A stretch of DNA of 64,000 nucleotides from positions 12,634-76,633 of the forward strand of contig JANPIC010000133.1 of assembly GCA_031424795.1 (NCBI GenBank), in the 5' to 3' direction. Below, in pieces: positions 5,076-61,239 of the stretch (its first letter is position 1; every line of letters starts with the position of its first letter). The notes beneath the pieces were generated by a model. The model had not been told where the DNA came from and did no database searches. It was given only the letters and a program-made list of their open reading frames with translations. Source of the stretch: Polaromonas sp. GTDB taxonomy: Bacteria; Pseudomonadota; Gammaproteobacteria; Burkholderiales; Burkholderiaceae_C. Made by a program: the position numbers and the translations under genes.

Positions 5076-6008
5076 TTGACTTTAGCAATGTCTAGCGAGC
5101 GACCACCCACCATCTCCCCCAACGCCGCTGCGCACTGGCAGCGCATTGCACCTGCTGCAACGCCGTGGCTGCACGAAGAAGTAGCCAGCCGCATGGTGGA
5201 TCGTTTGCAATGGATCAACTTACAGCCCAAAACGTGGGCGCACTGGGGCGCTGTGCGAGGCGGGCAGCAGGCGCATGTGGCATTGCTTGAAAAGTATCCA
5301 GATTCAACCTATTTTTTGCCTCTAGCCGGTGAATTTATTGCCGATAAAGCTATTAAAAATATAGCAAATTATGCGAACTCCAGCAGTAAATGGCAGCTGT
5401 CTAACTTGTTTAAAGCCAAGCCAAAAGTAGATTACTCATATCCAGCCGATAGCACGGTTGACATGCTGTGGGCGAACATGCACTTGCACAACGCACTTGA
5501 TCCGCAGATGTTGATAACGCAGTGGCACAAAGCCATAGCGACGGACGGATTTTTGATGTTCTCCTGCCTGGGGCCAGACACCCTGCGCGAACTGCGTGGT
5601 ATGTACGACAAGCTGGGTTGGCCAGTGCCTAGCCACCAATTTACCGACATGCATGATTGGGGCGATATGCTCATCCAAGCCGGCTTTGCCGAGCCCGTGA
5701 TGGACATGGAGCGCATTGTGCTGACGTACGAAACGCCACAAAAGCTACTGGAAGATTTGCGTGAATTAGGCCGAAACTTGCATCCAGACCGATTTCCTGC
5801 CTTGCGTGGCAAAGCTTGGAAAGCCGAGCTAGAAGCCGCTTTGGTCGAACATTTGGCTGACCCGGCTGAGGGTGGCCGGTTAAAGCTGACCTTCGAAGTC
5901 ATTTACGGCCATGCGATGAAGCCGAAGCCAAGGGTTAAGCTGAGTGAGCATAGCGCGGTGTCATTGCGGGATATGCGGGAGATGTTGCACGGTAGCAGAG
6001 GGCGCTAG
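5076..6008 (+). CDS. BioC-like class I SAM-dependent methyltransferase carrying an in-frame repeat-derived insert
   Basis: 310 aa. The LWANMHLH...GFLMFSCLGPDTLRELR block is typical of betaproteobacterial BioC-like methyltransferases. Residues ~PLAGEFIADKAIKNIANY are encoded by repeat copy A. Confidence 0.55.
   Translation: MTLAMSSERPPTISPNAAAHWQRIAPAATPWLHEEVASRMVDRLQWINLQPKTWAHWGAVRGGQQAHVALLEKYPDSTYFLPLAGEFIADKAIKNIANYANSSSKWQLSNLFKAKPKVDYSYPADSTVDMLWANMHLHNALDPQMLITQWHKAIATDGFLMFSCLGPDTLRELRGMYDKLGWPVPSHQFTDMHDWGDMLIQAGFAEPVMDMERIVLTYETPQKLLEDLRELGRNLHPDRFPALRGKAWKAELEAALVEHLADPAEGGRLKLTFEVIYGHAMKPKPRVKLSEHSAVSLRDMREMLHGSRGR
5318..5370 (-). repeat. Dispersed two-hairpin repeat, copy A (reverse), in-frame inside the BioC-like methyltransferase
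   Basis: gcctctagccggtgaatttattgccgataaagctattaaaaatatagcaaatt matches the family consensus GCTATAAATAAAATAGC-NN-TTTAGGCAATAAATACGCCGGCTAGAGGC on the reverse strand. Confidence 0.85.
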
Positions 6009-6103: not shown

Positions 6104-8251
6104 TTACTTAGCGCGAACGGTGCGAGCCTTGGCCATATCACGCGGCACAAACACTTTGCCGCCATTGCCTGGCTTGGCAGCTGGTTTAGCAAACGTTGGT
6201 TTGGCGAAGCCAGGCTTAGCGAATGCTGGTTTACGGTCAGCAAAGTCGCCACGTGGAGCGAAGTCACCGCGAGGGGCGAAATCTTTACGCGGGGCGAAGT
6301 CGCCGCGCTCAGCACGGTCACCACGAGGCGCAAAATCACCACGTGGAGCGAAGTCTTTACGAGGAGCGAAGTCACCACGTGGGGCAAATTCTTTACGTGG
6401 CGCAAAGTCACCGCGAGGTGCGAAATCGCCGCGAGGAGCTGAATCACCGCGTGGAGGAAAGCCACCGCCGCTATTGCGGTCGTTGAAACCACCTTTGCGA
6501 ACATAGCTGTCTGGTGCGCGAGCGTTGTCAGAAGGGCGTCCAGCGAAACGATCACCGAAACGGTCGCCCTGCGGAGCAGCGAAACCACCGCCTTGAGGCG
6601 CGCGGTCAGCGAAGCCTCCACGGTCACCACCAAAGTTACCACCGCCACCGAAACCGCCTTGGCGAGGTGCAAACTTTCGGTCACGGCCAGCGCCGCCGCC
6701 ATGTCCACGGTCGCCACCAAAACCACCGCGGTCTGGGCCGCCGAAGTTACCAGGGCGTGACTCAGGGAAACGTTGTTTTGGCTCTAAGCCAGGAATGACC
6801 TCTGCTTTGAATGGGGTGCGTGTGAACTGCTCGATGTCCATGATACGGCGACGGTCTCGGATTTCAGCAAAGCTGACAGCGATACCGTCACGGCCAGCAC
6901 GACCTGTACGACCAATACGATGGGTGTAATCCTCGGCTTTCATTGGCAGGCCAAAGTTGAACACGTGGCTGATCGATGGCACGTCAATACCGCGTGCTGC
7001 CACGTCGGTTGCCACCAAAATTTGAACTTGACCTTCGCGCAAAGCTTGCAAGCGGCGGTTACGGATACCTTGGTTCAAAGCGCCGTGCAAAGCAACCGCG
7101 CTGAAACCTTCTTGTTGCAGGTCGTTGGCCAAACCGTCGCACTCGATCTGGGTGCTGGCAAACACGATGGCTTGCTTGATGTTGGTGTCGCGCAACCAGT
7201 GGTCGAGCAACTTGCGTTTGTGCTGAGAATTGTCAGCCCAGAACAACGATTGCTTGATGTTTTGGTGCTTGTCTTGCGGGCTGTCGATGGTGATGCGCTG
7301 TGGCTCACGCATCACACGGCCAGCGAGCTGCTGGATGCGTGGTGCAAACGTGGCGCTGAACATCATGGTTTGTTGGCGGCCGCTGGTCAACTGGTTGACT
7401 TCTGCGAGATCGTCTGAGAAGCCCAAATCGAGCATACGGTCGGCTTCGTCAACGACCAAGAATTTCACTTTGTCGAGCTTCAACTGGTGTGAACGCTGCA
7501 AGTCAAGCAAACGGCCTGGGGTTGCCACCACCAAGTTAGCGTTTTGCAACTTGGCCAATTGCAACTGGTAAGGCATACCCCCCACCACGTTGGCAATGCG
7601 CAAACCTTTGCAGTAGCGCACCAAATCAATCGCGTCGTTGGCAACTTGTTGTGCCAATTCGCGGGTCGGGCAAAGAATCAAAGCGCCTGGCGTGGCCGGT
7701 GTGAAATTGCGGAAATTGGTCGGGTCTTTGCGTTTAGCGCGTTTTGGAGGCGCATCGCCACGGGCTTCGGCTTCAGCGCATGCTGCTTCAAACTCAGCGC
7801 GTTCGGCAGCTGCTTCTTGTTCTTGCTGTTTCAGCAAGGTGTGGATCACAGGCAGCAAAAAGGCGGCAGTTTTACCTGAACCGGTTTGGCTGGACACCAT
7901 CAAGTCAATAAATTTCTTCGGTGTGCCGTCAACAGCATCCGCTGGCAAAGCCAATGGAATTGTTTTCATCTGCACGGTGGTGGGTTGTGTGAAACCCATT
8001 TCTTTCGTCGCTTGAATCAGCTCATCAGCCAAGCCAAGTGCGATAAAGCCGTTTGGCAATTTGGCAGCTTCTTCCGCGGCCAAAGCTTTGGCTGCGGCCA
8101 CTTCATCTACTGCATTTTCAGTAGCAATTGAAGCAGTAAATTCGCCGGCTATGGCAGTATTTAATGTTAATTCGTTGTCGGTCTGAGATTCAAAAGTCGT
8201 TGTCATAGAGTCGGTCATACATAGCCGCCACCAATTTCGGTGCGGTTCCAT
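6104..8251 (-). CDS. DEAD-box ATP-dependent RNA helicase (RhlE-like) with a long repetitive RGG/PRGDFA C-terminal tail
   Basis: Motifs SQTGSGKT, PTRELA, VVDEADRMLD, SAT and HRIGRTGRAG. The real start is probably the ATG at 8218 or 8206. Confidence 0.9.
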   Translation of the reverse strand: MEPHRNWWRLCMTDSMTTTFESQTDNELTLNTAIAGEFTASIATENAVDEVAAAKALAAEEAAKLPNGFIALGLADELIQATKEMGFTQPTTVQMKTIPLALPADAVDGTPKKFIDLMVSSQTGSGKTAAFLLPVIHTLLKQQEQEAAAERAEFEAACAEAEARGDAPPKRAKRKDPTNFRNFTPATPGALILCPTRELAQQVANDAIDLVRYCKGLRIANVVGGMPYQLQLAKLQNANLVVATPGRLLDLQRSHQLKLDKVKFLVVDEADRMLDLGFSDDLAEVNQLTSGRQQTMMFSATFAPRIQQLAGRVMREPQRITIDSPQDKHQNIKQSLFWADNSQHKRKLLDHWLRDTNIKQAIVFASTQIECDGLANDLQQEGFSAVALHGALNQGIRNRRLQALREGQVQILVATDVAARGIDVPSISHVFNFGLPMKAEDYTHRIGRTGRAGRDGIAVSFAEIRDRRRIMDIEQFTRTPFKAEVIPGLEPKQRFPESRPGNFGGPDRGGFGGDRGHGGGAGRDRKFAPRQGGFGGGGNFGGDRGGFADRAPQGGGFAAPQGDRFGDRFAGRPSDNARAPDSYVRKGGFNDRNSGGGFPPRGDSAPRGDFAPRGDFAPRKEFAPRGDFAPRKDFAPRGDFAPRGDRAERGDFAPRKDFAPRGDFAPRGDFADRKPAFAKPGFAKPTFAKPAAKPGNGGKVFVPRDMAKARTVRAK
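6240..6455 (-). repeat. Tandem 18-bp repeat, 12 units, coding (hexapeptide PRGDFA-like) within the DEAD-box helicase tail
   Basis: Units read by hand: gcaaagtcgccacgtgga, gcgaagtcaccgcgaggg, gcgaaatctttacgcggg ... gctgaatcaccgcgtgga. They are contiguous and in phase. Confidence 0.9.
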
Positions 8252-13824: not shown

Positions 13825-13926
13825 AGTTTCCTCTTATGATCATGGCAGCACCAACGTCGGGATTGACATATGCTCGATTCATTTACAAAGAAAACTGTAA
13901 AAAAGAGCGGTCGGCCAGAGGATCGA

Positions 13927-16875: not shown

Positions 16876-16940
16876 AAAGCAATAAATATGGCTCTAACCG
16901 GTGTATTTATTGCCTTAAATGCTATTAAATTTATATTAAA
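16876..16940 (-). repeat. Dispersed repeat, copy B (reverse), intergenic, 2 nt after the TM2 gene stop
   Basis: aagcaataaatatggctctaaccggtgtatttattgccttaaatgctattaaatttatat. Contains the GCAATAAATA/TATTTATTGC hairpin arms. Confidence 0.8.
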
Positions 16941-16945
16941 TTGGC

Positions 16946-17839: not shown

Positions 17840-17954
17840 AAGTCGCATGGATGATTAAATCATTCTAAAAACGACTATGTAGGTAGTCAAATATATCGCT
17901 TGTTTGATTGGGATTGCGACTTTATGATTCGTCCACTTTTAACAAGGAGACATC

Positions 17955-18920: not shown

Positions 18921-18933
18921 GAAAGATTTCATC

Positions 18934-19635: not shown

Positions 19636-19657
19636 TTGGAGTAATTGGAGTAAAGCC

Positions 19658-20580: not shown

Positions 20581-20652
20581 AAGCAATGAATATGCCTGCA
20601 GCCGGCGTATTTATTCATTATATAGCTATAAAAATTATAGCAATTCTAGAGG
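20581..20652 (-). repeat. Dispersed repeat, copy C (reverse), intergenic, 3 nt after the dehydrogenase stop
   Basis: aagcaatgaatatgcctgcagccggcgtatttattcattatatagctataaaaattatagcaattctagagg. Confidence 0.85.
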
Positions 20653-30385: not shown

Positions 30386-31069
30386 ATGTTTAAATATTTT
30401 GCTATGTTATTTGTAGCTGTTCAGGCAATAAATACGCCGGCTGCAGGATTAAATGCACTTGAAAACTTTTTGAAATCTACGCAATCTGGTAAAGCTGAGT
30501 TCAGCCAAGTGGTAACTAGCCCAGCTAAGACGGAAGCCAAATCGGAATCTAAGTCCGATTCAGCTGAAAAATCAGTTGCCAAAGTCAAAACCTCTAGCGG
30601 CACATTTGAATTTTCACGACCTAATCGGTTTAAGTTTGTTTACAAAAAGCCGTTCGAGCAAACCATCGTCGCCGATGGCACCACGCTGTGGTTGTTTGAC
30701 GTAGATTTGAACCAAGTCACCGCCAGAAAGCAAGCCCAAGCTTTAGGCTCTACACCTGCAGCTTTGATAGCCACGGCCGCGAGTTTGAAGGCTTTGGAAG
30801 CTGAATTCAAACTGCAAGACGCGCCTGATGCCAATGGTCTGCAATGGGTGATTGCCACCCCAAAAGCCAAAGACGGGCAGATTCAGAGCATCAAAGTTGG
30901 CTTGAAAGGTATGGCGGACACGGGTGTTTCGCTCTCGGTTCTAGAGATTTTGGATAGTTTCGGTCAGCGTTCGGTGATTAATTTTGCCAATATTGAGCGA
31001 AATGTAACTTTTAGCGCTGACAACTTCAATTTCAAACCGCCAGTGGGAGCGGATGTGATTCGGCAATAA
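30386..31069 (+). CDS. lolA: Outer-membrane lipoprotein carrier protein LolA
   Basis: Signal peptide, then LENFLKSTQSGKAEFSQ... Conserved ftsK-lolA-rarA order. The signal peptide is encoded by repeat copy H. Confidence 0.85.
   Translation: MFKYFAMLFVAVQAINTPAAGLNALENFLKSTQSGKAEFSQVVTSPAKTEAKSESKSDSAEKSVAKVKTSSGTFEFSRPNRFKFVYKKPFEQTIVADGTTLWLFDVDLNQVTARKQAQALGSTPAALIATAASLKALEAEFKLQDAPDANGLQWVIATPKAKDGQIQSIKVGLKGMADTGVSLSVLEILDSFGQRSVINFANIERNVTFSADNFNFKPPVGADVIRQ
30397..30447 (+). repeat. Dispersed repeat, copy H (forward), encodes the LolA signal peptide
   Basis: ttttgctatgttatttgtagctgttcaggcaataaatacgccggctgcagg. The stop-generating TAG positions of the consensus are altered (TTcAGG, CTgcAGG). 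Confidence 0.85.
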
Positions 31070-31094: not shown

Positions 31095-32369
31095 ATGGTA
31101 AATACTCCGCCGCTGGCAGAGCGGATGCGCCCCACCAAGCTGTCTGAAGTCATTGGGCAGCAGCATATTTTGGGCGAAGGCATGGCGTTGCGCATTGCTT
31201 TTGAGTCTGGACAGCCACACAGCTGCATTCTTTGGGGGCCGCCTGGGGTGGGGAAGACGACGATCGCGCGGTTGATGGCGAATGCATTTGATGCGCAATT
31301 CATCACCATCAGTGCGACTTTGGGTGGTGTCAAAGACATTCGGGAAGCGGTTGAGCAAGCACTCATTTGGCAAGGTCAAGGCAAACGAACCATCGTGTTT
31401 GTGGACGAAGTACACCGCTTTAACAAAGCGCAGCAAGATGCGTTTTTGCCGCATGTGGAAAGCGGTTTATTGACCTTTATTGGCGCGACGACTGAGAACC
31501 CGTCGTTTGAAGTCAACTCCGCTTTGTTGTCCCGCGCTGCTGTTTACGTGTTGCAACCACTATCACCTGCTAATTTAGAGGAAATTATTGCTCTAGCCAG
31601 CGTATTTTCTGTCTCAATAGCTATAGATAAAGTAGCAATTGACAAATTGGTGGCGTATGCAGATGGTGATGCGAGACGCTTGCTCAACACGTTAGAGAAT
31701 CTCTACATCGCCGCTGAAAAGGAAAAGATAACGACGATCACGGATGCTTGGCTCACCCAAGTGTTAGGCGAGCGCATGCGCCGCTACGACAAAGGCGGCG
31801 AGCAGTTTTACGACACCATCAGCGCTTTGCACAAAAGCGTGCGTGGCTCAGACCCTGATGCGTCGTTGTACTGGTTTGTTCGCATGTTGGATGGTGGGGC
31901 AGACCCGCGCTACATGGCGCGCCGGCTGGTTCGCATGGCCAGTGAAGACATTGGTTTGGCGGATCCGCGTGCGCTATCCATGGCGCTAGATGCTGCCAAC
32001 ACCTACGAACGACTGGGTTCGCCCGAAGGCGAGTTGGCATTGGCGCAATGTGTGATTTATCTGGCAGTTGCTCCTAAGTCAAACGCGGTTTACAAAGCCT
32101 TCAACGCCGTCAAAGCGCACATCAAAAAAGACGGTACGCGACCTGTGCCCATGCATTTGCGCAATGCACCGACCAAGTTGATGAAAGAGCTGGACTATGG
32201 CAAAGGCTACCGTTATGCACATGACGAAGCCGACGGATTTGCCGCTGGCGAGCAATATTTACCAGATGGCATGAAAGATGCTTTGTTCTATGAACCTGTA
32301 GAACGCGGTTTGGAAATCAAGATTGCAGATAAGTTGCGGACGCTGAAAAAATTAAACGCAAGAAATTAA
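31095..32369 (+). CDS. rarA: Replication-associated recombination protein A (AAA+)
   Basis: LAERMRP...GPPGVGKTT, the VDEVHRFNKAQQD motif and a C-terminal MgsA domain. Confidence 0.9.
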   Translation: MVNTPPLAERMRPTKLSEVIGQQHILGEGMALRIAFESGQPHSCILWGPPGVGKTTIARLMANAFDAQFITISATLGGVKDIREAVEQALIWQGQGKRTIVFVDEVHRFNKAQQDAFLPHVESGLLTFIGATTENPSFEVNSALLSRAAVYVLQPLSPANLEEIIALASVFSVSIAIDKVAIDKLVAYADGDARRLLNTLENLYIAAEKEKITTITDAWLTQVLGERMRRYDKGGEQFYDTISALHKSVRGSDPDASLYWFVRMLDGGADPRYMARRLVRMASEDIGLADPRALSMALDAANTYERLGSPEGELALAQCVIYLAVAPKSNAVYKAFNAVKAHIKKDGTRPVPMHLRNAPTKLMKELDYGKGYRYAHDEADGFAAGEQYLPDGMKDALFYEPVERGLEIKIADKLRTLKKLNARN

Positions 32370-36214: not shown

Positions 36215-36287
36215 TTTGCTATTTTTTGCTATAAATAATATAGCTGCTTAGGAAGTAAATACGCCGGCTAGAGGCGTATTTTTAGGC
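36215..36287 (+). repeat. Dispersed repeat, copy D (forward), intergenic after livF
   Basis: tttgctattttttgctataaataatatagctgcttaggaagtaaatacgccggctagaggcgtatttttagg, with hairpin AAATACGCC/GGCGTATTT. Confidence 0.9.
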
Positions 36288-37225: not shown

Positions 37226-37397
37226 GGGGTTGAATTATGACCAAAGAATACGGATTTGTTTGTTTTATTGTGCAGTCAAAGTAAACAATGACTTCATTTT
37301 TGCATACTTCATTAAATTTTACAGTACCTAGAATTTGTGCCTGACAGCAACCGTCTAACCAATTTTTTAACCTGTATTTCTTTTTTTGAAAGTAAAC

Positions 37398-38462
37398 ATG
37401 AAAACCTACAAAATAGCATGCATCCCCGGCGACGGCATTGGCAAAGAAGTCGTTCCAGCGGGGCAAACAGTGCTGGAGGCGCTGGCGATAGCAAGCAACT
37501 CGTTCAAATTTGAATTTGAAAACTTCGGCTGGGGTGGTGACTGGTACCGTGCCCACGGTGAGATGATGCCGCAAAACGGCTTGGACGCCTTACGCAACAA
37601 AGACGCGATTTTGTTTGGCTCTGCGGGTGACCCAGACATTCCTGATCACATCACCCTATGGGGCCTGCGTTTGAAAATTTGCCAGGGTTTTGACCAATAC
37701 GCCAACGTGCGTCCCACACGCATTTTGCCCGGCATTGATGGTCCGCTGAAAAAGTGCAAACCAGAAGACCTGAACTGGGTCATCGTGCGTGAAAACTCAG
37801 AAGGTGAATACTCTGGCGTGGGCGGTCGTGTGCACCAAGGCCACCCGACAGAAGCGGCGACCGACGTTTGCATGATGACGCGTGCCGGTGTGGAGCGCAT
37901 CATGCGCTTCGCCTTCAAACTGGCCGAATCACGCCCACGCAAGCTACTTACCGTGGTGACCAAATCCAACGCACAGCGCCACGCCATGGTGATGTGGGAC
38001 GAAATTGCATTGCAAATAAGTAAAGAATTCCCTGCTGTGACGTGGGACAAGGTGCTCGTAGATGCGGCGACTGACCGCATGGTCAACCGCCCAGCCACGT
38101 TGGACACCCTTGTAGCGACCAATTTGCATGCTGATATTTTGAGCGATTTGGCTGCCGCACTCGCCGGCAGCCTAGGCATTGCACCAACTGGCAATATCGA
38201 CCCAGAACGCCGCTACCCTAGCATGTTTGAGCCGATTCACGGCTCAGCTTTTGACATCATGGGCAAAGGTTTGGCCAACCCCGTTGGCACGTTTTGGAGC
38301 TGTGTGATGCTGCTAGAGCATTTGGGCGAAGCGGCAGCCGCTAAGAAGCTTATGGCTGTGATTGAACAAATCACGGCTGACAAGAGTTTGCACACCGGAG
38401 ACCTAGGTGGCAAAGCTACAACCGCGCAAGTCACGGCGGCTGTGGTGCAAGGTCTGAAGTAA
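37398..38462 (+). CDS. Tartrate dehydrogenase/decarboxylase or D-malate dehydrogenase (isopropylmalate/isocitrate dehydrogenase family)
   Basis: MKTYKIACIPGDGIGKEV..., VRENSEGEYSG and NLHADILSDLAAAL motifs. A TTG at 37386 is an alternative start. Confidence 0.85.
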   Translation: MKTYKIACIPGDGIGKEVVPAGQTVLEALAIASNSFKFEFENFGWGGDWYRAHGEMMPQNGLDALRNKDAILFGSAGDPDIPDHITLWGLRLKICQGFDQYANVRPTRILPGIDGPLKKCKPEDLNWVIVRENSEGEYSGVGGRVHQGHPTEAATDVCMMTRAGVERIMRFAFKLAESRPRKLLTVVTKSNAQRHAMVMWDEIALQISKEFPAVTWDKVLVDAATDRMVNRPATLDTLVATNLHADILSDLAAALAGSLGIAPTGNIDPERRYPSMFEPIHGSAFDIMGKGLANPVGTFWSCVMLLEHLGEAAAAKKLMAVIEQITADKSLHTGDLGGKATTAQVTAAVVQGLK

Positions 38463-38496
38463 TCATAAAACCCCGTATTTTTAAAGGAGACAAAAC

Positions 38497-39456
38497 ATGA
38501 AAAAACTACTCAATTTCCTGCTGGTAGCCTTAGCTGCCACCACTGCGACAGGCATGGCGCAAGCACAAGCCTGCCCCGACAAAAACTACCTGTACTACCA
38601 AGCTTTCCCACCAGGTGGCGAGTCTGACCTCTCAGCTCGTCACCAGCAAATTGTGATGAAGAAGAAATGCCCCGCCATTGACACCATCATCCAATACAAA
38701 GCCGGTGCAGGCGGCGCATTGATGTGGGGGCAAATGAACCAGCTGCCAGGAGATGGACTCAATATCGTGGGCGTGAATCTGCCACATATTGTTTTCCAAC
38801 CCTTGGAAGGGCAAGTGCAATACAAAACAGCAGATATCACCCCCGTTTTCTGGTTTCACTACACCCCAGACATCTTGGTTGTTCCAGAGAAAAGTCCCAT
38901 CAAAACCTTTGCAGATTTGGTCAAAGCTGCTAAAGCCACACCCGACAAAATCAGTTTGGGTGGCTCAGGCTTGAATTCAGCCAACCATGCAGCGCATGAG
39001 CGTATGAATGCCGAGTTTGGCATTAAAACCGTCTATATCCCCTACAAAGGCACGGGCGACATGTCCACAGCCGTGCTGGGCTCGCAAGTTGACGGGGCGA
39101 TGACCTACACCCCCTTTGCCATCGCGAACAAAGGTCGTGTACGCGCACTAGCCGTTGCTATGGAAAAACGCCACCCTTTGCTGCCAGAAGTTCCAACTTT
39201 CAAAGAACTGGGTGTGAACTGGGTGGATGGTGCCTATCGTGGCATTGGTGTACCTAAATCCACGCCGCCAGAAGCTCGCAAGCGCATCTCTGACCATTGG
39301 GCTGCATTAAACAGCGATCCTGAAATGATAACCCTAGCAGCCAAGAGCGGTTTTGAGCTGGTCAATGTTGGTGTGGACAAAATGGACGCCTTTATGGCGG
39401 AGAAAACCAAGCTTTACACAGAATCTGCAAAGCGACTAGATTTCAGCAAGAAGTAA
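38497..39456 (+). CDS. Bug/TctC-family substrate-binding protein (orphan)
   Basis: Signal peptide and Bug-family fold signature (AFPPGGESD). Confidence 0.8.
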   Translation: MKKLLNFLLVALAATTATGMAQAQACPDKNYLYYQAFPPGGESDLSARHQQIVMKKKCPAIDTIIQYKAGAGGALMWGQMNQLPGDGLNIVGVNLPHIVFQPLEGQVQYKTADITPVFWFHYTPDILVVPEKSPIKTFADLVKAAKATPDKISLGGSGLNSANHAAHERMNAEFGIKTVYIPYKGTGDMSTAVLGSQVDGAMTYTPFAIANKGRVRALAVAMEKRHPLLPEVPTFKELGVNWVDGAYRGIGVPKSTPPEARKRISDHWAALNSDPEMITLAAKSGFELVNVGVDKMDAFMAEKTKLYTESAKRLDFSKK

Positions 39457-39457
39457 T

Positions 39458-39532
39458 TTTAGCTATAAACAATATAGCTATTTAGGCAATAAATACGCCG
39501 ACTAGAGTCTGATTTCATGCTCTAGCCGGTTC
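39458..39532 (+). repeat. Dispersed repeat, copy E (forward), intergenic between the Bug gene and ppc stops
   Basis: ttttagctataaacaatatagctatttaggcaataaatacgccgactagagtctgatttcatgctctagccggt, with inverted CCGACTAGAG/CTCTAGCCGG arms. Confidence 0.9.
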
Positions 39533-43524: not shown

Positions 43525-44367
43525 GTGAAAGTCATCGTGACCCGCCCGCGCCTAGAGGCCGATGTTTGGGTCAAACAGTTGCGGGCTTTGCACTTTGATG
43601 CTGTTGCGCTACCGTTGATTCACATTGGCGCTGCGGCAGATACTGAAAGCGTTAAGTGGGTTTGGCAGAATTTGCACCAATACCGTGCAATCATGTTTGT
43701 CAGCAGCAACGCAGTTCGCTATTTTTACCCCTTAAATATGCCTATAGCCGGCGAATTTATTGACTATTCAGCTATAAAAAATATAGCAAATTTAGACAAT
43801 TCTGCATCCTATCCAAGACTGTGGGCAACCGGACCAGGCACGCGGGACGCCTTGCTGGCGCAGTCTGTGCCTAGCGATTTGATTGATTCGCCCGCTGCAG
43901 ACGCAGCACAGTTTGACTCAGAAGCGCTGTGGAATATCATCAAATATCAAGTCAAACCGGGCGATAAAGTGCTGATTGTGCGAGGCAGCACCCCACATAC
44001 CAAAGATGCTGAAGGGGTTGCCATGAACGGTCGTCCTTGGTTGGCTGACCAACTGACCGCAGCTGGTGTGCAGGTGGATGTTGTGGTTAGCTACCAGCGC
44101 AGCGCTCCAGTTTTTGATGTGTCGGAGCTGGCGCTGATGGCGCAAGCCGCAACGGATCAATCAGTCTGGTTGCTCAGCAGTTCGGAAGCGGTAGCGAATT
44201 TAGCAGCTCATTTAAAGGAGATTCCAGAGCTGAACTTGTCACAAGCCAGAGCCATTGCCACCCACCCCCGCATTGCACAGGCAGCCAGAGACGCTGGTTT
44301 TGGTGTTGTTTACGAGTCACGCCCGCTGCTGGCTGACGTGGCGGCTTCTATAGAATCTCTGCTATGA
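43525..44367 (+). CDS. hemD: Uroporphyrinogen-III synthase with an in-frame repeat-derived insert
   Basis: Sits between hemC and hemX and has a HEM4-like sequence (VIVTRP...). Residues PIAGEFIDYSAIKNIANL are encoded by repeat copy F. Confidence 0.8.
   Translation: MKVIVTRPRLEADVWVKQLRALHFDAVALPLIHIGAAADTESVKWVWQNLHQYRAIMFVSSNAVRYFYPLNMPIAGEFIDYSAIKNIANLDNSASYPRLWATGPGTRDALLAQSVPSDLIDSPAADAAQFDSEALWNIIKYQVKPGDKVLIVRGSTPHTKDAEGVAMNGRPWLADQLTAAGVQVDVVVSYQRSAPVFDVSELALMAQAATDQSVWLLSSSEAVANLAAHLKEIPELNLSQARAIATHPRIAQAARDAGFGVVYESRPLLADVAASIESLL
43741..43793 (-). repeat. Dispersed repeat, copy F (reverse), in-frame inside hemD
   Basis: cctatagccggcgaatttattgactattcagctataaaaaatatagcaaattt. Confidence 0.85.
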
Positions 44368-45530
44368 GTGACATTTCCATGCAAGACCCCCCTAACAGCC
44401 CTGAGAGCCCTGTGGCACAGGCAGCAACGACCTCAAATGCTTTGCAAAACACGGCTGCCAGTAGTAATCATGTTGGAAATACTGGCTTTTCTAAGTTTTT
44501 TACTATATTTATAATAGCAGCTTTGGCAGTATCTATGCTGGCTAGCTTCTATTTATGGCGTAAATTGACGAATATGCAAGAGCATTTGGCCAGACAAAGT
44601 GCCGATGCGACCAATTTAAGCGTCGAAGCGCGCAGCTTGGCGAAAAACGCGCAAGACGTGGCGCGGGAAGCGTCCGCGAGATCGTCTTTGAACGAAACGC
44701 GGCTGAGCGAAGTTGCCCTGCAGCGCAGCCAGTTGGACGAGTTGATGCAAAGTTTGTCCCGCTCACGCGATGAAAATTTGGTGGTGGATGTGGAGTCTGC
44801 CCTGCGTTTGGCGCAGCAGCAGGCGCAGTTAACCGGCAGTGTCGAGCCGCTTTTGGCTGCTTTGAAAACAGCAGACCAGCGTTTGGCACGTGCAGCCCAA
44901 CCCCGTTTGAACGCCGTGCGCCGAGCCTTGGCCAGTGACACCGACAAAATCAAGGCCGCAGCGGTGACAGATATTCCAAGCTTACTCGTCAAGCTGGACG
45001 AAATCAGCCGTTTGGTGGAAGACTTGCCCGTGTTGAATACGGTGACAGCGGTGGCGAGGGTTGACAAGCAAAACGCGCCATCTAACACATCATCCAAGGC
45101 GTCAGGTGCTAAATCAGCTGTAAATACCTCTGCAAACCAAGATGCCGACTGGCAAAGCAGTGTGCAAAACTTCATGCAAAACAATTGGCAAATTGTCCGT
45201 GCTGAACTTGCGAAATTGGTGCGCGTCAGCCGCATTGAAAACCCAGATGCCGTGCTGCTGTCGCCTGAGCAAACCTACTTTTTGCGTGAAAACCTCAAAC
45301 TCAAAATCCTCAATGCAAGGCTTGGTTTGTTGGGGCGGCAAATTCAGTCTGCTAAATCTGACCTAGCGTCAGTGGCGGACGATGTGCGTAAGTACAGCGA
45401 CCCAACCTCCAGACAAGCGCAGACGCTGCAAAGCGCGCTGTCACAAGTGCAGACGCAGCTGGGCAATGCCAGCATTCCTGCGCTTGATTCATCTTTAGCA
45501 GCGTTGACGCTGGCTGCGGCGGGTAAATAA
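44364..45530 (+). CDS. hemX: HemX-like membrane-anchored protein (uroporphyrinogen-III C-methyltransferase-like family)
   Basis: Single N-terminal TM anchor, then a coiled-coil-rich domain. ATGA overlap with hemD; hemCDXY order. Confidence 0.75.
   Translation: MSDISMQDPPNSPESPVAQAATTSNALQNTAASSNHVGNTGFSKFFTIFIIAALAVSMLASFYLWRKLTNMQEHLARQSADATNLSVEARSLAKNAQDVAREASARSSLNETRLSEVALQRSQLDELMQSLSRSRDENLVVDVESALRLAQQQAQLTGSVEPLLAALKTADQRLARAAQPRLNAVRRALASDTDKIKAAAVTDIPSLLVKLDEISRLVEDLPVLNTVTAVARVDKQNAPSNTSSKASGAKSAVNTSANQDADWQSSVQNFMQNNWQIVRAELAKLVRVSRIENPDAVLLSPEQTYFLRENLKLKILNARLGLLGRQIQSAKSDLASVADDVRKYSDPTSRQAQTLQSALSQVQTQLGNASIPALDSSLAALTLAAAGK
44496..44546 (+). repeat. Dispersed repeat, copy M (forward, degenerate), encodes the HemX TM anchor
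   Basis: tttttactatatttataatagcagctttggcagtatctatgctggctagc aligns colinearly with the consensus, with about 10 mismatches. Confidence 0.6.
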
Positions 45531-46859: not shown

Positions 46860-49454
46860 ATGACGCTTATGTCGTTCTGGCATGGTCGGATTAGCTTGCT
46901 TTTTGCAACCTTGTTGGCTTGGGTAATGGGCACTTGGTTGCAGCTGCTGCAAACGTCTTTGAATGATGCTTTATTTTATGCATCATATTTGGCTCTAGCC
47001 GGCGTGTTTGTTGCCTGTATTGCTATAAATGGTAGAGTAAAAAATACGAAAAATAAACACCCATATTTCCACATTTTGTTACCCATTTGCATACTGTTAG
47101 CCAGCGGCTGTGCAGCTTTTGGTTTGACTGGTTTGCGTGCTGTTGCCTACGCCTCGCATCAGCTGTTGCCGGCTTACGAAGGGCGGGACATCCAGGTCGT
47201 CGGGGTTGTCTCTGCCATGCCGCATATCAACGAGATGGGAACACGGTTTCAGCTTGATGTTGAGTCTGCACAATTGCTGACTCTTGCATCTTCAAATACG
47301 GAGCAACTTCAAAGCAAGCAAGTTGTTGAGTTGCCTTCTAAAATTTCACTCAGTTGGTATGGCAGCGTTTTTGGTGCTGTGGAAAATGCGGACGACTTGG
47401 CAACACTGCAGCGCAAACCCATGCCTATTCTTCCCGGTGAACGTTGGCAAATGACGGTACGACTCAAAGCACCGCATGGCAACAGCAACCCAGGCGGTTT
47501 TGACTTTGAACTGTGGCTGTGGGAGCAAGGCATACAAGCGACTGGTTATGTGCGCACGGGCGCAAACGACGTCGCACCCGTACGCATCGCGCAGACCTGG
47601 CAGCATCCAGTTGAACAATTGCGTTACAAAGTGCGAGATGCCATTTTTGCGCGTATGTCATCGCACATGTCACCTTCAGACTCTTTCAAAAATTCAAGTG
47701 AAGCAGGTATCGTTGCCGCTTTGGTGACGGGTGACCAGCAGTCGATTGACCGTGCCGATTGGGATGTCTTTCGCACCACAGGCGTTGCGCATTTGATGAG
47801 TATTTCAGGTCTCCACATCACCATGTTTGCTTGGGGCGCAGTGCTTGTGGTGGGTATGTTGTACAGACGATCAACGCGCTTATGTTTGGCTTACCCCGCA
47901 ACAAACGCTGCTTTGCTGGGCGGTTTGATGCTGGCGACAGGCTACGCGGTCTTTAGTGGTTGGGGTGTGCCATCGCAGCGGACGATTTTGATGCTGGCAA
48001 CGGTAACGTTGCTCAGATTATTTGGCAAACGCTGGCCTTGGCCAACGGTGTGGATGTTGGCTTGCGCCGTAGTGGTTGCGGTTGACCCTTGGGCATTGCT
48101 GCAAGCGGGTTTTTGGCTCAGCTTTGTGGCAGTCGGCGTGTTGTTTGCCACGGATATTTCGACCAATACCCCAAGACTTTCGGATCGCAATCATGCTGAT
48201 GTCGATGCCAATGACAATGCTTCATCAAAATCAAACTTGGCAGCAACATTCAAAAAGAAATTATGGCTAAGTGGTCGTGAGCAGTTCATCATCACCATGG
48301 TGCTTGCACCCTTGACGCTGTTGCTGTTTGGTCAAGTTTCTGTGGTCGGGCTTTTGGCAAATGCTTTGGCCATACCGTGGGTGACGCTGGTTGTGACGCC
48401 CTTGGCAATGCTGGGCGCAATTGCTTCTCCGATGTGGGATTTAGCCGGTTTGGCTGTGCATGTGTTAAGCCGATTTTTAGGTTTACTGGCTGGATTGCCG
48501 TTTGCCACAGTCTCTGTTGCTGTCCCGCATCTGCTGGTGAGTGTTATTGCTATGTTAGGTGGTGTTCTTTTGGTTTTGCCATGGCCTTGGCAACTGCGCC
48601 TTCTCGGCTTCCCTTTGTTGCTGCCAGTTATTTTGTGGCAAGCGCCTCGCCCAGCAGACGGGCAATTTGAATTGATAGCGGCTGATATTGGTCAAGGCAA
48701 CGCCGTCATCATACGAACGGCAAAGCACACGCTGGTGTATGACGCGGGGCCGCGTTATTCCATTGACAGCGATGCCGGTCATAGGGTGTTGGTTCCGCTA
48801 TTGCGGGCGACGAATGAAAGCGTTGATACCGTCATGCTCAGCCACCGCGATATTGACCATTCAGGCGGCATCAAATCTGTGCTGGCCATGCATCCGAAAG
48901 CAAACTTCATCAGTTCAATTGAAAGCACCCATGAATTACAAGTTCTCCGTCCCGTGCAGCGTTGTGTGGCTGGGCAAGCGTGGCAATGGGATGGCGTTGA
49001 TTTTGCTGTGCTTCACCCATCAACGTCAGATTATGAATCGCCACAAAAATCAAACGCCATGAGTTGTGTGTTGCGCATCAGCACGCCACAAGCCAGTGTT
49101 TTGTTGGCTGGCGATATTGAACTGGCGCAGGAAACAAGACTGGTATCAAACCAACAAAACGATGGTTTGAAATTAACGAGTACGATGTTATTGGTGCCGC
49201 ACCACGGCAGCAAAACCTCGTCTAGTGCTGCATTTCTAGAGGCTGTTCAACCGCAGTTTGCGGTCGTGCAAGCGGGTTACAGAAATCGTTTCGGTCATCC
49301 CGCCGCAAATGTTCTGGAGCGCTATAACGGACGCAATATCAAAGTGATAGACACAGCGCATTGTGGAGCAATGCTTTGGAGCAGCTCAACACCGAAGGAA
49401 GCGCGTTGCCAACGTGAAATTGCTGGGCGGTATTGGCATCATCAAGTGCCGTAA
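46860..49454 (+). CDS. comEC: DNA internalization-related competence protein ComEC/Rec2
   Basis: 864 aa. Competence (polytopic) domain with GVAHLMSISGLH, plus a C-terminal metallo-beta-lactamase domain (SHRDIDHSGG). Confidence 0.9.
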   Translation: MTLMSFWHGRISLLFATLLAWVMGTWLQLLQTSLNDALFYASYLALAGVFVACIAINGRVKNTKNKHPYFHILLPICILLASGCAAFGLTGLRAVAYASHQLLPAYEGRDIQVVGVVSAMPHINEMGTRFQLDVESAQLLTLASSNTEQLQSKQVVELPSKISLSWYGSVFGAVENADDLATLQRKPMPILPGERWQMTVRLKAPHGNSNPGGFDFELWLWEQGIQATGYVRTGANDVAPVRIAQTWQHPVEQLRYKVRDAIFARMSSHMSPSDSFKNSSEAGIVAALVTGDQQSIDRADWDVFRTTGVAHLMSISGLHITMFAWGAVLVVGMLYRRSTRLCLAYPATNAALLGGLMLATGYAVFSGWGVPSQRTILMLATVTLLRLFGKRWPWPTVWMLACAVVVAVDPWALLQAGFWLSFVAVGVLFATDISTNTPRLSDRNHADVDANDNASSKSNLAATFKKKLWLSGREQFIITMVLAPLTLLLFGQVSVVGLLANALAIPWVTLVVTPLAMLGAIASPMWDLAGLAVHVLSRFLGLLAGLPFATVSVAVPHLLVSVIAMLGGVLLVLPWPWQLRLLGFPLLLPVILWQAPRPADGQFELIAADIGQGNAVIIRTAKHTLVYDAGPRYSIDSDAGHRVLVPLLRATNESVDTVMLSHRDIDHSGGIKSVLAMHPKANFISSIESTHELQVLRPVQRCVAGQAWQWDGVDFAVLHPSTSDYESPQKSNAMSCVLRISTPQASVLLAGDIELAQETRLVSNQQNDGLKLTSTMLLVPHHGSKTSSSAAFLEAVQPQFAVVQAGYRNRFGHPAANVLERYNGRNIKVIDTAHCGAMLWSSSTPKEARCQREIAGRYWHHQVP
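46991..47035 (-). repeat. Dispersed repeat, copy G (reverse, partial), in-frame near the ComEC N-terminus
   Basis: ggctctagccggcgtgtttgttgcctgtattgctataaatggtag. Confidence 0.7.
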
Positions 49455-49470
49455 CATATGTTTAGCTTAT

Positions 49471-50559
49471 CTATTTTCCCATCTGCTGAGCTACTTCACG
49501 ACCTAGATCAATCACTGACATGGCATAGTAGCTGCTCCAGTTGTAGCGGGTGATGGCGTAAAAATTCTCTGTTCCAGCCACATAGCTAGGCGTATTTTCT
49601 GCAATGCTAGGGTCGCCATTTTGCAGTTCTATCAACGCTAGTGGACCGGTATGTGCAGCACCAACAGCATTCAAATTTGCGCCTTTGGCCATGAAGCTGG
49701 TGACGCTAAACGTAGGCAAAATATCAGGTGCCATCAGTGCATCCATGTCTAATTTTGCAGTATCAAAAGTAACGGGGTAATGCGTTGGCATACCTGGTTG
49801 CCACTTGAAGGCTTTGAAATAGTTGGCAACAGAGCCGATCACATCGGCAGGGCTGGTGAACAAATCGACCTTGCCATCTTCATCAAAATCAATCGCATAT
49901 TTCACCCAGCTGCTAGGCATAAACTGCGGTAAACCCATGGCACCTGCGTAGCTGCCGCGTGGCGACAGCGGGTCAACACCAGAGCGTGAGGTCAGCGATA
50001 AAAAATGTTCTAACTCGCCTTTGAAAAACGCCTGCCGTTCAGCAGCGCGAGGGTGGGATGCAGGGAAGTCAAACGTTAAAGTCGTCAGCGCATCAATCAC
50101 CCGATAGCTGCCCGTATCGCGCCCATAAATGGTTTCAACACCAATGATGCCCACGATGATCTCCGCTGGCACACCGTATTCTTTCTCCGCTTTGGTTAGT
50201 GCCGCCGCATTGTCTTGCCAAAATTTAACGCCTGCCTTGATACGGACAGGGTCAATAAACCGACTGCGATAAACGCGCCAGTTTTTGGCGACACCCCTAG
50301 GAGCTGGCTGCATCAGTCGTGAGATTTGCCCAATGTTCCTAGCTTGACCAATTGCATTCCGTACCCACTCTTTGTCCAAATCGCGCCGTTCAGCAATATC
50401 GTCAGCCATCTGCATGGCCTCTGTGCGTGTGGCGTAGAGTTCGTACTGTGTTGAAGGTTTTGCGCTAACCTGTTTTTTATTGCCAATTTGTGCTGTAGCC
50501 GGCGTATTTATTGCTTGAAATGCTATAAATAGCATAGTAAAAATTAATCTTTGTTGCAT
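49471..50559 (-). CDS. mltB: Lytic murein transglycosylase B
   Basis: GIIGVETIYG and AGAMGLPQFMPSSW motifs. The signal peptide is encoded by repeat copy I. Confidence 0.85.
   Translation of the reverse strand: MQQRLIFTMLFIAFQAINTPATAQIGNKKQVSAKPSTQYELYATRTEAMQMADDIAERRDLDKEWVRNAIGQARNIGQISRLMQPAPRGVAKNWRVYRSRFIDPVRIKAGVKFWQDNAAALTKAEKEYGVPAEIIVGIIGVETIYGRDTGSYRVIDALTTLTFDFPASHPRAAERQAFFKGELEHFLSLTSRSGVDPLSPRGSYAGAMGLPQFMPSSWVKYAIDFDEDGKVDLFTSPADVIGSVANYFKAFKWQPGMPTHYPVTFDTAKLDMDALMAPDILPTFSVTSFMAKGANLNAVGAAHTGPLALIELQNGDPSIAENTPSYVAGTENFYAITRYNWSSYYAMSVIDLGREVAQQMGK
50492..50541 (-). repeat. Dispersed repeat, copy I (reverse on +, forward relative to mltB), encodes the MltB signal peptide
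   Basis: gctgtagccggcgtatttattgcttgaaatgctataaatagcatagtaaa. Confidence 0.85.
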
Positions 50560-58137: not shown

Positions 58138-58145
58138 GGCTAAGT

Positions 58146-58198
58146 TTTGCTATATTTAAAATAGCACTTTAGGCAATAAATACGCCGGCTAGAGGTGT
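58146..58198 (+). repeat. Dispersed repeat, copy J (forward), 8 nt after the relE/parE stop; left border of the low-GC cassette
   Basis: ttttgctatatttaaaatagcactttaggcaataaatacgccggctagaggtg. Shares an identical 29-nt core with copy K. Confidence 0.9.
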
Positions 58199-58243
58199 AA
58201 ATGAGGAATAAATTAGAGGTTTTATGCACTAATCTTGCATTTA

Positions 58244-58582: not shown

Positions 58583-58723
58583 AAACCTTATTTTTATTTA
58601 CATTTAAAACTTGAAAATATTTTTTAAACTTATGAGTGAATAATGCATTTTAGTTCTAAATAAAATAGAATTTTAGATAATAAATGCGATTGCCAAAAAC
58701 ATAAGTTATATGAAAATATGGAT

Positions 58724-59374: not shown

Positions 59375-59508
59375 TTTGTTCGAAAAGGTCTAGAAGTAAT
59401 TAGTATTGCAAAAGTTGCAAAAATTTCTTAGAGAGTAATGCAATATAACTTAAATTTCACGAAAACAGCATCAAATTTAGTCAAATTTCACTGTTAAATT
59501 ATTTAATC

Positions 59509-59568
59509 TGCTATAAATAAAATAGCGCTTTAGGCAATAAATACGCCGGCTAGAGGCATATTTAAAGG
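59509..59568 (+). repeat. Dispersed repeat, copy K (forward), right border of the low-GC cassette, upstream of murJ
   Basis: ctgctataaataaaatagcgctttaggcaataaatacgccggctagaggcatatttaaagg. Confidence 0.9.
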
Positions 59569-59667: not shown

Positions 59668-61239
59668 ATGTCCCTGCTCAAATCCGCCTCCGTCATCTCG
59701 CTGCTCACGCTGGTATCCCGCATCACAGGTATGGTGCGTGACCAGTTGATGGCGGCTATGTTTGGGGCTTCGGCTATGACGGATGCGTTTAACGTGGCGT
59801 TTCGGCTGCCGAATATGTTCAGGCGGCTGTTTGCGGAAGGGGCGTTTAGCCAGGCGTTTGTGCCTGTTTTGGGGGCGAGCAAGGTTAAAAACGGGGACGA
59901 GGCGACCAAGGTGTTGGTTGATCGTGTCGCCACCGTGCTGTTTTGGGTGTTGGTGCTCACTTGCGTGATTGGCGTAGCCGCTGCGCCTGCGCTGGTGTGG
60001 GTGATGGCCAGCGGGCTGCAGCAAAACCAGCAGGGGTTTGACGCTGCGGTGTTCATGGCGCGGTGGATGTTTCCTTACATTGGGTTCATGTCGCTGGTGG
60101 CGCTGGGCGCGGGGGTGCTGAACACCTACAGACGCTTTGCCGTGCCTGCCGTGACGCCTGTTTTGCTGAATATGGCGATGATTTTGGCGGCTTGGCTGGG
60201 TGCACCGTGGTTCAAAAGCATGGGGATTCAGCCGATTTACGCGATGTCTATGGGTGTTATTGGTGGTGGCGTGTTGCAGTTGGTGATGCAGTGGCTGGCG
60301 CTGCGCAAAATTGGCATGTTGCCGAAAATTCGCGCCAATTGGGCGGAAGTGAAGGCGGCTTGGGCGGATGCGGGCGTTAAAAACGTGGCTAAATTGATGC
60401 TGCCAGCGCTTCTCGGCGTGGGGGTGGCGCATATTTCGGCGATTATCAACCTGCAGATCGCCTCGCATTTAACGCCCGGCAGTGTCAGCTGGATGAGCTA
60501 CGCCGAGCGGTTGATGGAGTTTCCCACCGCCATGCTGGGCGTTGCGCTGGGCGTGGTGCTGACGCCGCGCTTGGTGGCGGCCAAGGCCAGCGGTGACGAC
60601 GCCACCTATTCCGCCATGATTGACTGGGGGCTGCGGCTGGTGATCTTGCTGGCTGTGCCTTGTACCGTGGCGTTGCTGCTGTTTGCCAAGCCGCTGGTGG
60701 CGACTTTGTTCCATTACGGCGTGTTTTCAAGCAACGATGTGCAGCAGGTGACCACGCCTTTGATGGGCTACGGCGTCGGTTTGATTGGTTTGGTCGCTAT
60801 CAAAATATTGGCGCCCGGGTTTTACGCCAGCCAAGACATCAAAACCCCAGTCAAAATCGCCATTGCTGTGCTCATCATCACCCAGCTGCTGAATATCGCA
60901 CTGGTGCCGCTGTTTGCGCACGCGGGGCTGGCGCTGGCGATTGGCTTGGGTGCGTTGATCAACGCGCTGTGGCTGCTGATTGGTTTGATCAAGCGTGGCA
61001 GCTACCAGCCGTTGCCGGGGTGGGGTAAATTCATCGCCCAAGTCGTCATTGCCAGCGCCTTATTAGGGGTCTGGTTGTGGTGGAGCGCGGGTTATGTTGA
61101 TTGGGTTGCGCTAAAAAGTGACGTTTTTAAGAGAATAATGCTTCTAGCCGGCGCATTAATTGCCTCTGCAGCTATTTATTTTATAGCATTGATGGTTGCT
61201 GGTGTGAAAATCAAGACTTTGCTGCGGGGTCAAGGCTAG
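59668..61239 (+). CDS. murJ: Lipid II flippase MurJ (MviN)
   Basis: MSLLKSASVISLLTLVSRITGMVRDQLMAAMFGAS...FRLPNMFRRLFAEGAFSQAFVP. Confidence 0.95.
   Translation: MSLLKSASVISLLTLVSRITGMVRDQLMAAMFGASAMTDAFNVAFRLPNMFRRLFAEGAFSQAFVPVLGASKVKNGDEATKVLVDRVATVLFWVLVLTCVIGVAAAPALVWVMASGLQQNQQGFDAAVFMARWMFPYIGFMSLVALGAGVLNTYRRFAVPAVTPVLLNMAMILAAWLGAPWFKSMGIQPIYAMSMGVIGGGVLQLVMQWLALRKIGMLPKIRANWAEVKAAWADAGVKNVAKLMLPALLGVGVAHISAIINLQIASHLTPGSVSWMSYAERLMEFPTAMLGVALGVVLTPRLVAAKASGDDATYSAMIDWGLRLVILLAVPCTVALLLFAKPLVATLFHYGVFSSNDVQQVTTPLMGYGVGLIGLVAIKILAPGFYASQDIKTPVKIAIAVLIITQLLNIALVPLFAHAGLALAIGLGALINALWLLIGLIKRGSYQPLPGWGKFIAQVVIASALLGVWLWWSAGYVDWVALKSDVFKRIMLLAGALIASAAIYFIALMVAGVKIKTLLRGQG
61141..61190 (-). 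repeat. Dispersed repeat, copy L (reverse), in-frame in the last TM region of MurJ
   Basis: cttctagccggcgcattaattgcctctgcagctatttattttatagcatt. Confidence 0.75.

Follow-up and report, generated by a model that had tools for sequence, protein, structure and literature searches.

The window analyzed here is a 64,000-nt stretch of DNA (GC content 51%) from Polaromonas sp. (assembly GCA_031424795.1, contig JANPIC010000133.1, positions 12,634 to 76,633), over which a palindromic repeat of ∼58 nt is dispersed in 14 strong copies. Two of these copies lie inside genes for unrelated proteins. The first gene, hemD (43525..44367, + strand), is part of a hemC-hemD-hemX-hemY cluster and encodes a uroporphyrinogen-III synthase of 280 aa, which is matched by Pfam HEM4 (E = 1.9e-26) and whose structural model matches 4es6, 3mw8 and 3re1. 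The second gene (5076..6008, + strand) encodes a BioC-like protein of 310 aa, which TIGR02072 covers over residues 124–282 only, in the C-terminal half; the BioC structure 8x8i likewise matches only this half, and the protein has no Pfam match. Its labels in source databases vary between 'biotin synthase' and 'malonyl-CoA O-methyltransferase'. At the position of the GxGxG S-adenosylmethionine-binding loop of class I methyltransferases it contains WGAVRGG, a degenerate form of the loop that is conserved in all homologues, so that, judging from these residues, the BioC-like protein may not be an active methyltransferase.

A sequence-only reading of this DNA had pointed to these two copies and proposed that they add the same peptide to both enzymes, in the same repeat orientation and frame, without stops and without breaking the host frame. 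The translations of both copies bear this out, and only the noted coordinates were off, by 1–2 nt. Copy F, inside hemD, occupies 43734..43793 (+ strand; aa 70–90, NMPIAGEFIDYSAIKNIANL) and, when aligned to codons (43741–43794), encodes the peptide PIAGEFIDYSAIKNIANL in the context YFYPLNMPIAGEFIDYSAIKNIANLDNS. Copy A, inside the BioC-like gene, occupies 5314..5372 (+ strand; aa 80–99, FLPLAGEFIADKAIKNIANY), and its codon-aligned part (5319–5372) encodes PLAGEFIADKAIKNIANY in the context YFLPLAGEFIADKAIKNIANYANS. The two segments, which share the strand and the frame of the repeat, are identical at 45/54 nt and 13/18 aa. Neither host is a pseudogene, as both open reading frames (ORFs) are intact and each protein is conserved in >100 orthologues.

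An 18-nt core pattern of the repeat has 14 matches in the window, where 0.25 would be expected by chance, and none of 100 shuffles contained 14 core matches. A hidden Markov model (HMM) was built from seven clearly intergenic copies only and run with nhmmer, and it recovered the genic copies, which had not entered the model: HemD (E = 5e-14), BioC-like (1.7e-12), MltB (1.3e-12), MurJ (1e-10), ComEC (5.6e-10), DEAD-box helicase (2.7e-8) and RarA (7.4e-8). If no element were shared, AT-rich runs of codons might resemble one another by chance or composition, and this could apply to the weakest matches (in Kef, HemX and RsgA; E from 1e-3 to 5e-5), most of which fall in hydrophobic segments. For the 14 strong copies chance is refuted by the scores of the two focal copies with a model that excludes them, by their common nucleotides and by the shuffles, and as a general explanation its probability is negligible.

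In the orientation of hemD, the consensus of the repeat reads AAATATGCC-TCTAGCC-GGCGTATTTATTGCC-TAAAG-C-GCTAT-N7-ATAGC AAAA, with the part after N7 also given as ATAGCAAAA. The motif extends over ∼55 nt, of which ∼30 positions are near-invariant, and it has two conserved parts: Box A, with the core CTCTAGCCGGCGTATTTATTGCC, and Box B, a 5-7-5 inverted repeat (GCTAT-N7-ATAGC). As the right arm of a hairpin, Box A could pair with a variable left arm, AAATACGCC or, in the copy 3′ of ppc, CCGGCTAGAG. Two hairpins are predicted in the intergenic copies, most of which score between z = −2 and z = −4.4. A census of covariation in Box B by a relaxed regular expression produced too many false positives for a clean statistic. 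Translation of the consensus in six frames gives NMPLAGVFIA*SAILFIAK in the sense frame and FAINKIAL*AINTPARGIF in the antisense frame, each interrupted by a single stop at the CCTAAAG spacer. These are the two frames used by translated copies, and in every such copy the consensus stop is replaced; a third frame is fully open, yet is used by no copy. Nine of the 14 strong copies are translated, six of them in the one sense frame and two in the one antisense frame.

Repeat-derived segments in the host proteins

The HemD segment is shared by all 120 closest HemD homologues (70–100% identity), which keep xMPLAG(E/V)FIAYxAIKNIxN. A homologous 15-residue piece, N.xLAPVFxAQxAIK, is present in 78 HemD orthologues among the matches listed, which come from Comamonadaceae with 57–72% GC (Rhodoferax, Acidovorax, Curvibacter, Polaromonas and others); the wider form FFxxNxxLAPVFxAQxAIK-TRAW is seen in representatives of 50%-identity clusters and at the 78 orthologous loci. 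Among the cluster representatives, the length of the HemD linker has three modes, ∼20–21 with no element, 27 in a short form and 33–40 in the AIKNIAN form that is found in the window. Solved HemD structures lack ∼19 residues at the site of the repeat, and the net gain over element-less HemDs is ∼7–18 residues. The AlphaFold model of HemD (mean predicted local distance difference test score, pLDDT, of 80.7) is confident except for residues 71–93 and 159–169. Residues 71–93, for which pLDDT is <50, are located between helix 61–67 and strand 98–101 and include a short helix (82–88). In this model the repeat peptide appears as a low-confidence excursion at the surface of an otherwise confident fold, with which it would be compatible.

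The BioC-like orthologues from Polaromonas, Variovorax and relatives (61–65% identity) have a segment of equal length, AEAQVERAQVAIKNIAKPWW, which ends in AIKNIAKP, and the only extra residues of the protein in the window are located downstream of the repeat. In its model (mean pLDDT 70.7), the segment follows strand 78–80 (β2) and includes helix 91–102, with pLDDT <50 over residues 85–113. From the model and general knowledge of the fold, we take this position to be the helix after β2 (helix B) of class I methyltransferases. A structure profile search for this equivalence returned only matches of the BioC-like alignment to the C-terminal half of solved structures. Of a simple insert that adds ∼18 aa, the HemD data support a segment in a low-confidence excursion that is longer than in solved structures, and the equal length of the BioC-like orthologues speaks against it. 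According to the sequence-only reading, the same segment in orthologues from repeat-free genomes would count against inserts, and the Comamonadaceae orthologues of HemD and of the BioC-like protein do all have a homologous segment. As the genomes in question are not repeat-free and carry the same family at low density, this describes an ancient embedded element rather than the absence of an element.

Four further proteins are translated in the same sense frame as HemD and the BioC-like protein. In MurJ, the repeat (61134..61191, + strand; RIMLLAGALIASAAIYFIAL) encodes the last transmembrane helix without a gain in length, and the alignment to the solved MurJ 7waw is gap-free across it. In rarA/mgsA, the copy (31583..31641, + strand; EIIALASVFSVSIAIDKVAID) is conserved in related loci L006 and L166–L169 and also adds no length: at the repeat, the protein falls 6 residues short of E. 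coli RarA and is exactly as long as an 80%-identical orthologue (L144) from a 70% GC genome, the DNA of which is GC-rich and unrelated at this site. The rarA copy of L006 (1347–1402) contains a 5-residue duplication, IEKIAIDKVAVDK, and a change of length in the repeat region is therefore still possible. In ComEC, the repeat (46984..47046, + strand; SYLALAGVFVACIAINGRVKNT) encodes the first, N-terminal hydrophobic segment, with orthologous copies in L007, L086 and L166–L169. In the DEAD-box RNA helicase, it lies in the N-terminal extension (8104..8163, − strand; LNTAIAGEFTASIATENAVDE), with matches at the same site in L003 and L004. The helicase ORF (6104–8251, − strand) also contains an insert of ∼50 aa that separates motif I (SQTGSGKT) from motif Ia, and its C-terminus carries a (PRGDFA)-like hexapeptide run that is encoded by an 18-nt tandem repeat at 6239–6472.

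The antisense frame is used by lolA (30395..30454, − strand; MFKYFAMLFVAVQAINTPAAG; E = 1.2e-15) and by an mltB-like gene for an SLT_2 lytic transglycosylase (50484..50545, + strand; MQQRLIFTMLFIAFQAINTPATA). Here the repeat runs antisense to the gene and serves as the N-terminal signal peptide of both periplasmic proteins, and six related genomes have kept both copies. In soluble hosts, the copies have GAA (Glu) in place of the GTA (Val) of the consensus, and the hydrophobic residues are kept in the membrane copies. Taken together, HemD appears to carry a modest net insertion, and the BioC-like protein, RarA and MurJ carry replacements of equal length; none of them is recent.

Age of the family and constraint on its nucleotides

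HemD searches of genome and metagenome collections gave at least about six close relatives among the matches listed, and further close loci were fetched singly. The nearest genomes so obtained are metagenome-assembled Comamonadaceae with 50–53% GC and HemD 61–80% identical, some of which are labeled Polaromonas sp. and one Candidatus Aalborgiella; GCA_013298945.1 is included. Across nine related loci the repeat recurs at the same sites, namely in the signal peptides of lolA and mltB, in rarA and hemD, at the N-terminus of comEC and in the spacer 3′ of ppc. Identity is 80.7% for orthologous copies, compared with 73.9% for paralogues of one genome and 72.5% for unrelated pairs. The higher identity of orthologues indicates vertical inheritance with little concerted evolution, and gene conversion was rejected as the source of the conservation, as paralogous copies of one genome resemble one another hardly more than copies from different genomes do. 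In the alignment 3′ of ppc, the repeat is nearly invariant and its 3′ flank cannot be aligned.

The family extends into high-GC genomes. Outside hemD, the HMM had 38 further matches there, both intergenic and genic, the genic ones in the same frame, and 12 strict matches to the full element were found in 2.18 Mb (0.6 expected). The density is one copy per 4.6 kb in the window and ∼1 per 180 kb in the high-GC relatives, a difference of ∼40-fold. The family has the same age as the Comamonadaceae, and its copies multiplied at the base of the low-GC (50–53% GC) Polaromonas-related lineage to which the window belongs. Complete copies were also found on three contigs of the viral class of IMG/VR with 51–53% GC, one or two on each (L172, 7384–7433; L173, 4977–5025; L174, 3275–3322); these contigs possibly represent prophages, or host DNA from the same lineage that was misclassified.

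These distributions bear on the reading that was suggested by the two focal copies, in which a mobile palindromic repeat of the type of Rickettsia palindromic elements (RPEs) or miniature inverted-repeat transposable elements recently entered hemD and the BioC-like gene as selfish DNA, with ∼18 residues tolerated in surface loops. Such a repeat would explain why unrelated proteins share the same sequence, strand and frame, and why a low-confidence loop makes HemD longer than its solved counterparts; the density in the window implies past proliferation, and a few copies are located on putative viral contigs. However, each of the copies examined has kept its position in relatives with HemD 61–80% identical, orthologues are more alike than paralogues, and the segment is present in 120/120 HemD homologues and in all BioC-like homologues, with homologous AT-rich islands in high-GC genera. 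Moreover, the BioC-like protein, RarA and MurJ have gained no length, and terminal inverted repeats or target-site duplications were not seen in flank alignments. The 'recent' part of this model is largely refuted, and we regard the model as a whole as quite unlikely.

A different route to copies without a gain in length would be assimilation in situ, in which native segments with a chance resemblance to the motif were driven toward it without indels, either by a drive like that of the uptake signal sequences (USS) and DNA uptake sequences (DUS) or by short-patch gene conversion. This would fit the unchanged length of the BioC-like protein, RarA, MurJ and the LolA signal peptide, the 5/18 residues of RarA that are in register with the element-free orthologue, and the weaker matches in Kef, HemX and RsgA, which form a gradient. 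It would also fit the copy 3′ of ppc, an inverted pair of cores that resembles a terminator hairpin, as DUS pairs do. On the other hand, a motif of this length with so many near-invariant positions holds far more information than known uptake signals, and in the sparsely populated high-GC relatives the hemD, bioC-like and lolA copies are nevertheless conserved. Homogenization within genomes is very weak (0.739 versus 0.725), which argues against ongoing conversion. Assimilation is, in our estimate, unlikely.

The sequence that is kept inside the genes seems to be that of the nucleic acid, not that of the peptide. For pairs of hemD sequences with the same residue in the low-GC clade, the fraction with an identical codon is 0.87 in the repeat and 0.61 in the rest of the gene, and the 20-codon windows of hemD that rank highest for codon identity all begin at codons 69–76. 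In the 78 high-GC hemD orthologues among the matches listed, the third codon position is A or T at a fraction of 0.55–0.9 at codons 66–99, versus ∼0.2 elsewhere. The segment is rich in the rare codons CTA, GTA, GCT, ATT, AAA, ACA and AGA (for example, CCT CTA GCC CCC GTA TTC ATT GCG CAA TCA GCT ATT AAA ACA AGA GCA), and CAA (Gln) occupies the position of TAA in the intergenic consensus. In the bioC-like genes of Polaromonas jejuensis, Polaromonas SM01 and Variovorax terrae, GCTAT-N7-ATAGC is likewise kept with rare codons; in V. terrae, where the GC content at third codon positions (GC3) of the gene is 0.92, the repeat stretch is the window of lowest GC3. In a 59% GC relative, the DNA of the lolA signal peptide is also element-like and AT-rich.

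If instead the peptide itself were a selected module, e.g. an amphipathic helix that binds a membrane or a partner, the likeness of the nucleotides would follow from common origin and from constraint on the residues. AIKNI is almost invariant in the 120 HemD and most BioC-like homologues, the change from Val to Glu is common to the soluble hosts, and short helices are predicted in both focal proteins. This explanation accounts neither for the conservation at synonymous sites and the rare codons ending in A or T in genomes of 60–70% GC nor for intergenic copies that are conserved equally well and never translated, nor for the different peptides that are read from the two strands, and both segments are of low confidence in the models. 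Selection on the peptide is disfavored for these reasons, and we consider it very unlikely.

Intergenic copies and adjacent features

Other strong copies are intergenic. One lies directly upstream of a LysR gene (16884..16942, + strand; E = 5.3e-15), one between convergent genes (20589..20647, + strand; E = 2.6e-16) and one at 58142..58202 (− strand; E = 6.3e-18). The best match to the consensus (59504..59563, − strand; E = 1.6e-19) is located between divergent genes, upstream of murJ. The copies at 36221..36281 (− strand; E = 2.1e-18) and 39455..39516 (− strand; E = 1.4e-17) are direct copies, the former being one of two around a three-gene cassette. The latter lies just past the ppc stop codon and contains an extra left arm, which results in a long hairpin (z = −4.4); its position is kept in relatives. 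A regular spacing of the copies was unconvincing (coefficient of variation of ∼0.65 over 13 intervals, calculated by hand).

The cassette between the direct copies at 36221 and 39455 (36302–39456, 3.2 kb) encodes a LysR regulator, an Iso_dh-family dehydrogenase and a TctC/Bug receptor. In L006 and L166–L169, a single copy is found between livF and ppc and the cassette is absent; this single copy resembles the left half of the 39455 copy joined to the right half of the 36221 copy. The pattern points to integration at the repeat, or to a deletion between two copies. Direct copies also bracket 16946–20578 (+ strand copies; from the LysR gene to a 2-hydroxyacid dehydrogenase) and 58244–59374 (− strand copies; two ORFs without a Pfam match). 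The bracketed segments thus number three out of three, which is not significant alone.

Weak matches (E from 1e-5 to 1e-2) were observed at 44497–44545 in the membrane anchor of HemX, at 1214–1258 and 1569–1605 in Kef, at 11438–11495 at the C-terminus of RsgA and at 53384–53428 in an ORF at 52.7–53.7 kb. Those in HemX and at 53.4 kb recur at the same sites in relatives. Such element-like matches could be decayed copies or compositional matches. A second, unrelated repeat of 26 nt, GAAAAGCCTTTGATTATAaCagTTTA, has four copies in the window (at 13925, 15739, 26037 and 57525), two of which adjoin ORFs between 13.4 and 16.3 kb.

Relation to known repeats and possible role

The closest analogue of the repeat, compared by description, appears to be the RPEs, which encode a conserved peptide in frame in unrelated proteins (Ogata et al. 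2000/2002; summarized in PMC10969869). Both are dispersed palindromic repeats with many copies in unrelated housekeeping ORFs, always in frame, with a peptide that is compatible with the fold and with copies that are common to related species. RPEs are, however, ∼100–150 bp long, compared with ∼58 nt here, and reside in a reduced intracellular alphaproteobacterium, whereas the present host belongs to a free-living betaproteobacterial family. Also unlike RPEs, several copies replace residues instead of adding them, both strands are translated, with the antisense strand giving rise to signal peptides, and the constraint at the nucleotide level is clear. The likeness to RPEs that was proposed in the sequence-only reading is wider than it had been drawn where in-frame peptides in unrelated proteins are concerned (six sense and two antisense hosts), and does not hold for a recent or simple insertion. 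We do not file the repeat as an RPE, given its length, its host lineage and the several copies that add no residues. The most fitting description is a new form of in-frame palindromic repeat, set apart by its age, by nucleotide-level selection and by the translation of both strands, including signal peptides.

REP elements and their composites (REPINs and BIMEs) of gamma- and betaproteobacteria are short structured repeats that lie at the ends of genes, frequently between convergent ones, that are long-lived and vertically inherited, are candidate sites for protein binding or mRNA structure and can mediate rearrangements; REP/BIME elements bind integration host factor and gyrase. Their persistence at fixed sites is shared by the repeat described here. 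REPs are, however, extragenic by definition, which does not apply to a family with most of its strong copies translated, and they are simple GTAG-headed palindromes, in contrast to the asymmetric Box A combined with a 5-7-5 inverted repeat. A RAYT (Y1) transposase was not seen among the host and flanking genes scanned in the window and the 20-kb loci, where no search aimed at one was made. The USS of Pasteurellaceae and DUS of Neisseriaceae occur in coding and non-coding DNA in preferred frames, without indels and at positions conserved between species, and their inverted pairs double as terminators. These signals have cores of 9–12 nt at ∼1 per kb, and the repeat differs from them both in size (∼55 nt) and in density.

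Within the family Comamonadaceae, the repeat named BRE has been reported with 29 copies in Polaromonas sp. JS666, and it also occurs in Bordetella (Hot et al. 2011, PMC3110155). BREs are 75–91 bp long with ∼69% GC and often in tandem (TTTTTTTGGCCGCGGGCCGCCCAAGGCAAAAAAGCCCCC...), and they have no similarity to the repeat in the window; BRE was rejected as its identity, as the published Bordetella sequences are GC-rich and unrelated. A plasmid BLAST search with the consensus gave no match, and full-text literature searches, for strings of its core and for REP elements of Comamonadaceae, yielded no description of the repeat.

Overall, the evidence probably reflects an ancient REP/RPE-like element that has been kept by purifying selection on its nucleotide sequence wherever it occurs, with the peptides as tolerated or co-opted by-products. 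The peptide common to HemD and the BioC-like protein would then be such a by-product of one nucleic-acid element in both genes. On this interpretation the repeat would be a cis-acting DNA or RNA site whose likeliest role is REP-like, i.e. binding a protein or forming a hairpin. As a working mechanism, the site may be recognized as DNA, and the 5-7-5 inverted repeat with its adjacent asymmetric box suggests a dimeric binding protein. Alternatively, a hairpin might form in RNA or in single-stranded DNA, and a role in RNA is conceivable, as ∼12 of the 14 copies are oriented sense to transcription.

The host proteins would have accommodated these copies according to the frame in which they are read. 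The sense frame is predicted to give an amphipathic or hydrophobic helix, PLAG(E/V)FIAxxAIKNIAN, which would be placed in a disordered loop in HemD and after strand β2 in the BioC-like protein, and in terminal extensions or transmembrane helices elsewhere. A translation in the antisense frame would supply a signal-peptide core, (F)AMLF(V/I)AxQAINTPA, that is used by LolA and MltB. The peptide may further have been tuned to its context, with Glu for Val in soluble hosts. A more far-reaching form of this interpretation is plausible, although we hold it with less conviction: the repeat would be a functional signal (a binding site for a regulatory or chromosomal protein, or an RNA hairpin module) that is held family-wide at fixed sites, also in essential genes, such that the stretches in hemD, the bioC-like gene, lolA and further genes are dual-coding and their non-coding role prescribes the residues of the HemD loop, the BioC-like helix after β2, the two signal peptides and the MurJ transmembrane helix, and that also marks the boundaries of accessory cassettes.

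Several observations weigh against an ancient element kept for its nucleotide sequence. The left arm, on which the Box A hairpin depends, is absent from the coding copies, and this hairpin has no clean support from covariation; for Box B, compensatory T-A to C-G changes gave only weak signs in a noisy sample. At the gathering threshold, Rfam returned tRNA only for the whole window and no family matching the repeat, and a promoter/terminator consensus scan of 30–48 kb made no systematic call at the copies, with totals at the level of shuffles. Copies aligned together with their flanks show no evident terminal inverted repeats and no evident target-site duplications, the boundaries of the element are fuzzy and no empty site was found. 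Replacement without a change in length, as in the BioC-like protein, RarA and MurJ, is not predicted by a simple insertion model. In terms of sampling, the loci from other genomes cover ∼20 kb around hemD and the bioC-like gene, and the pairs in the codon test are partly close relatives (L007, L087 and L088). Finally, the AT-rich islands could in principle reflect selection for slow translation instead of a binding site.

To our knowledge, in-frame palindromic repeats have so far been regarded as peculiar to Rickettsia and as merely tolerated selfish DNA. Here the same kind of object is found in a large free-living family, the Comamonadaceae, where it is held at the nucleotide level across very different GC contents and forms AT-rich islands of rare codons in genes whose GC3 is otherwise 0.8–0.9. 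In the annotation of metagenome-assembled genomes, such islands can easily be misread as horizontal acquisitions or as insertions, and the recurrent low-confidence loop in models of HemD and BioC-like proteins is explained by the repeat. The finding raises the testable question of what reads the ∼58-nt sequence. If the interpretation is true, segments of natural proteins, including two signal peptides and one transmembrane helix, would be set by a non-coding constraint.

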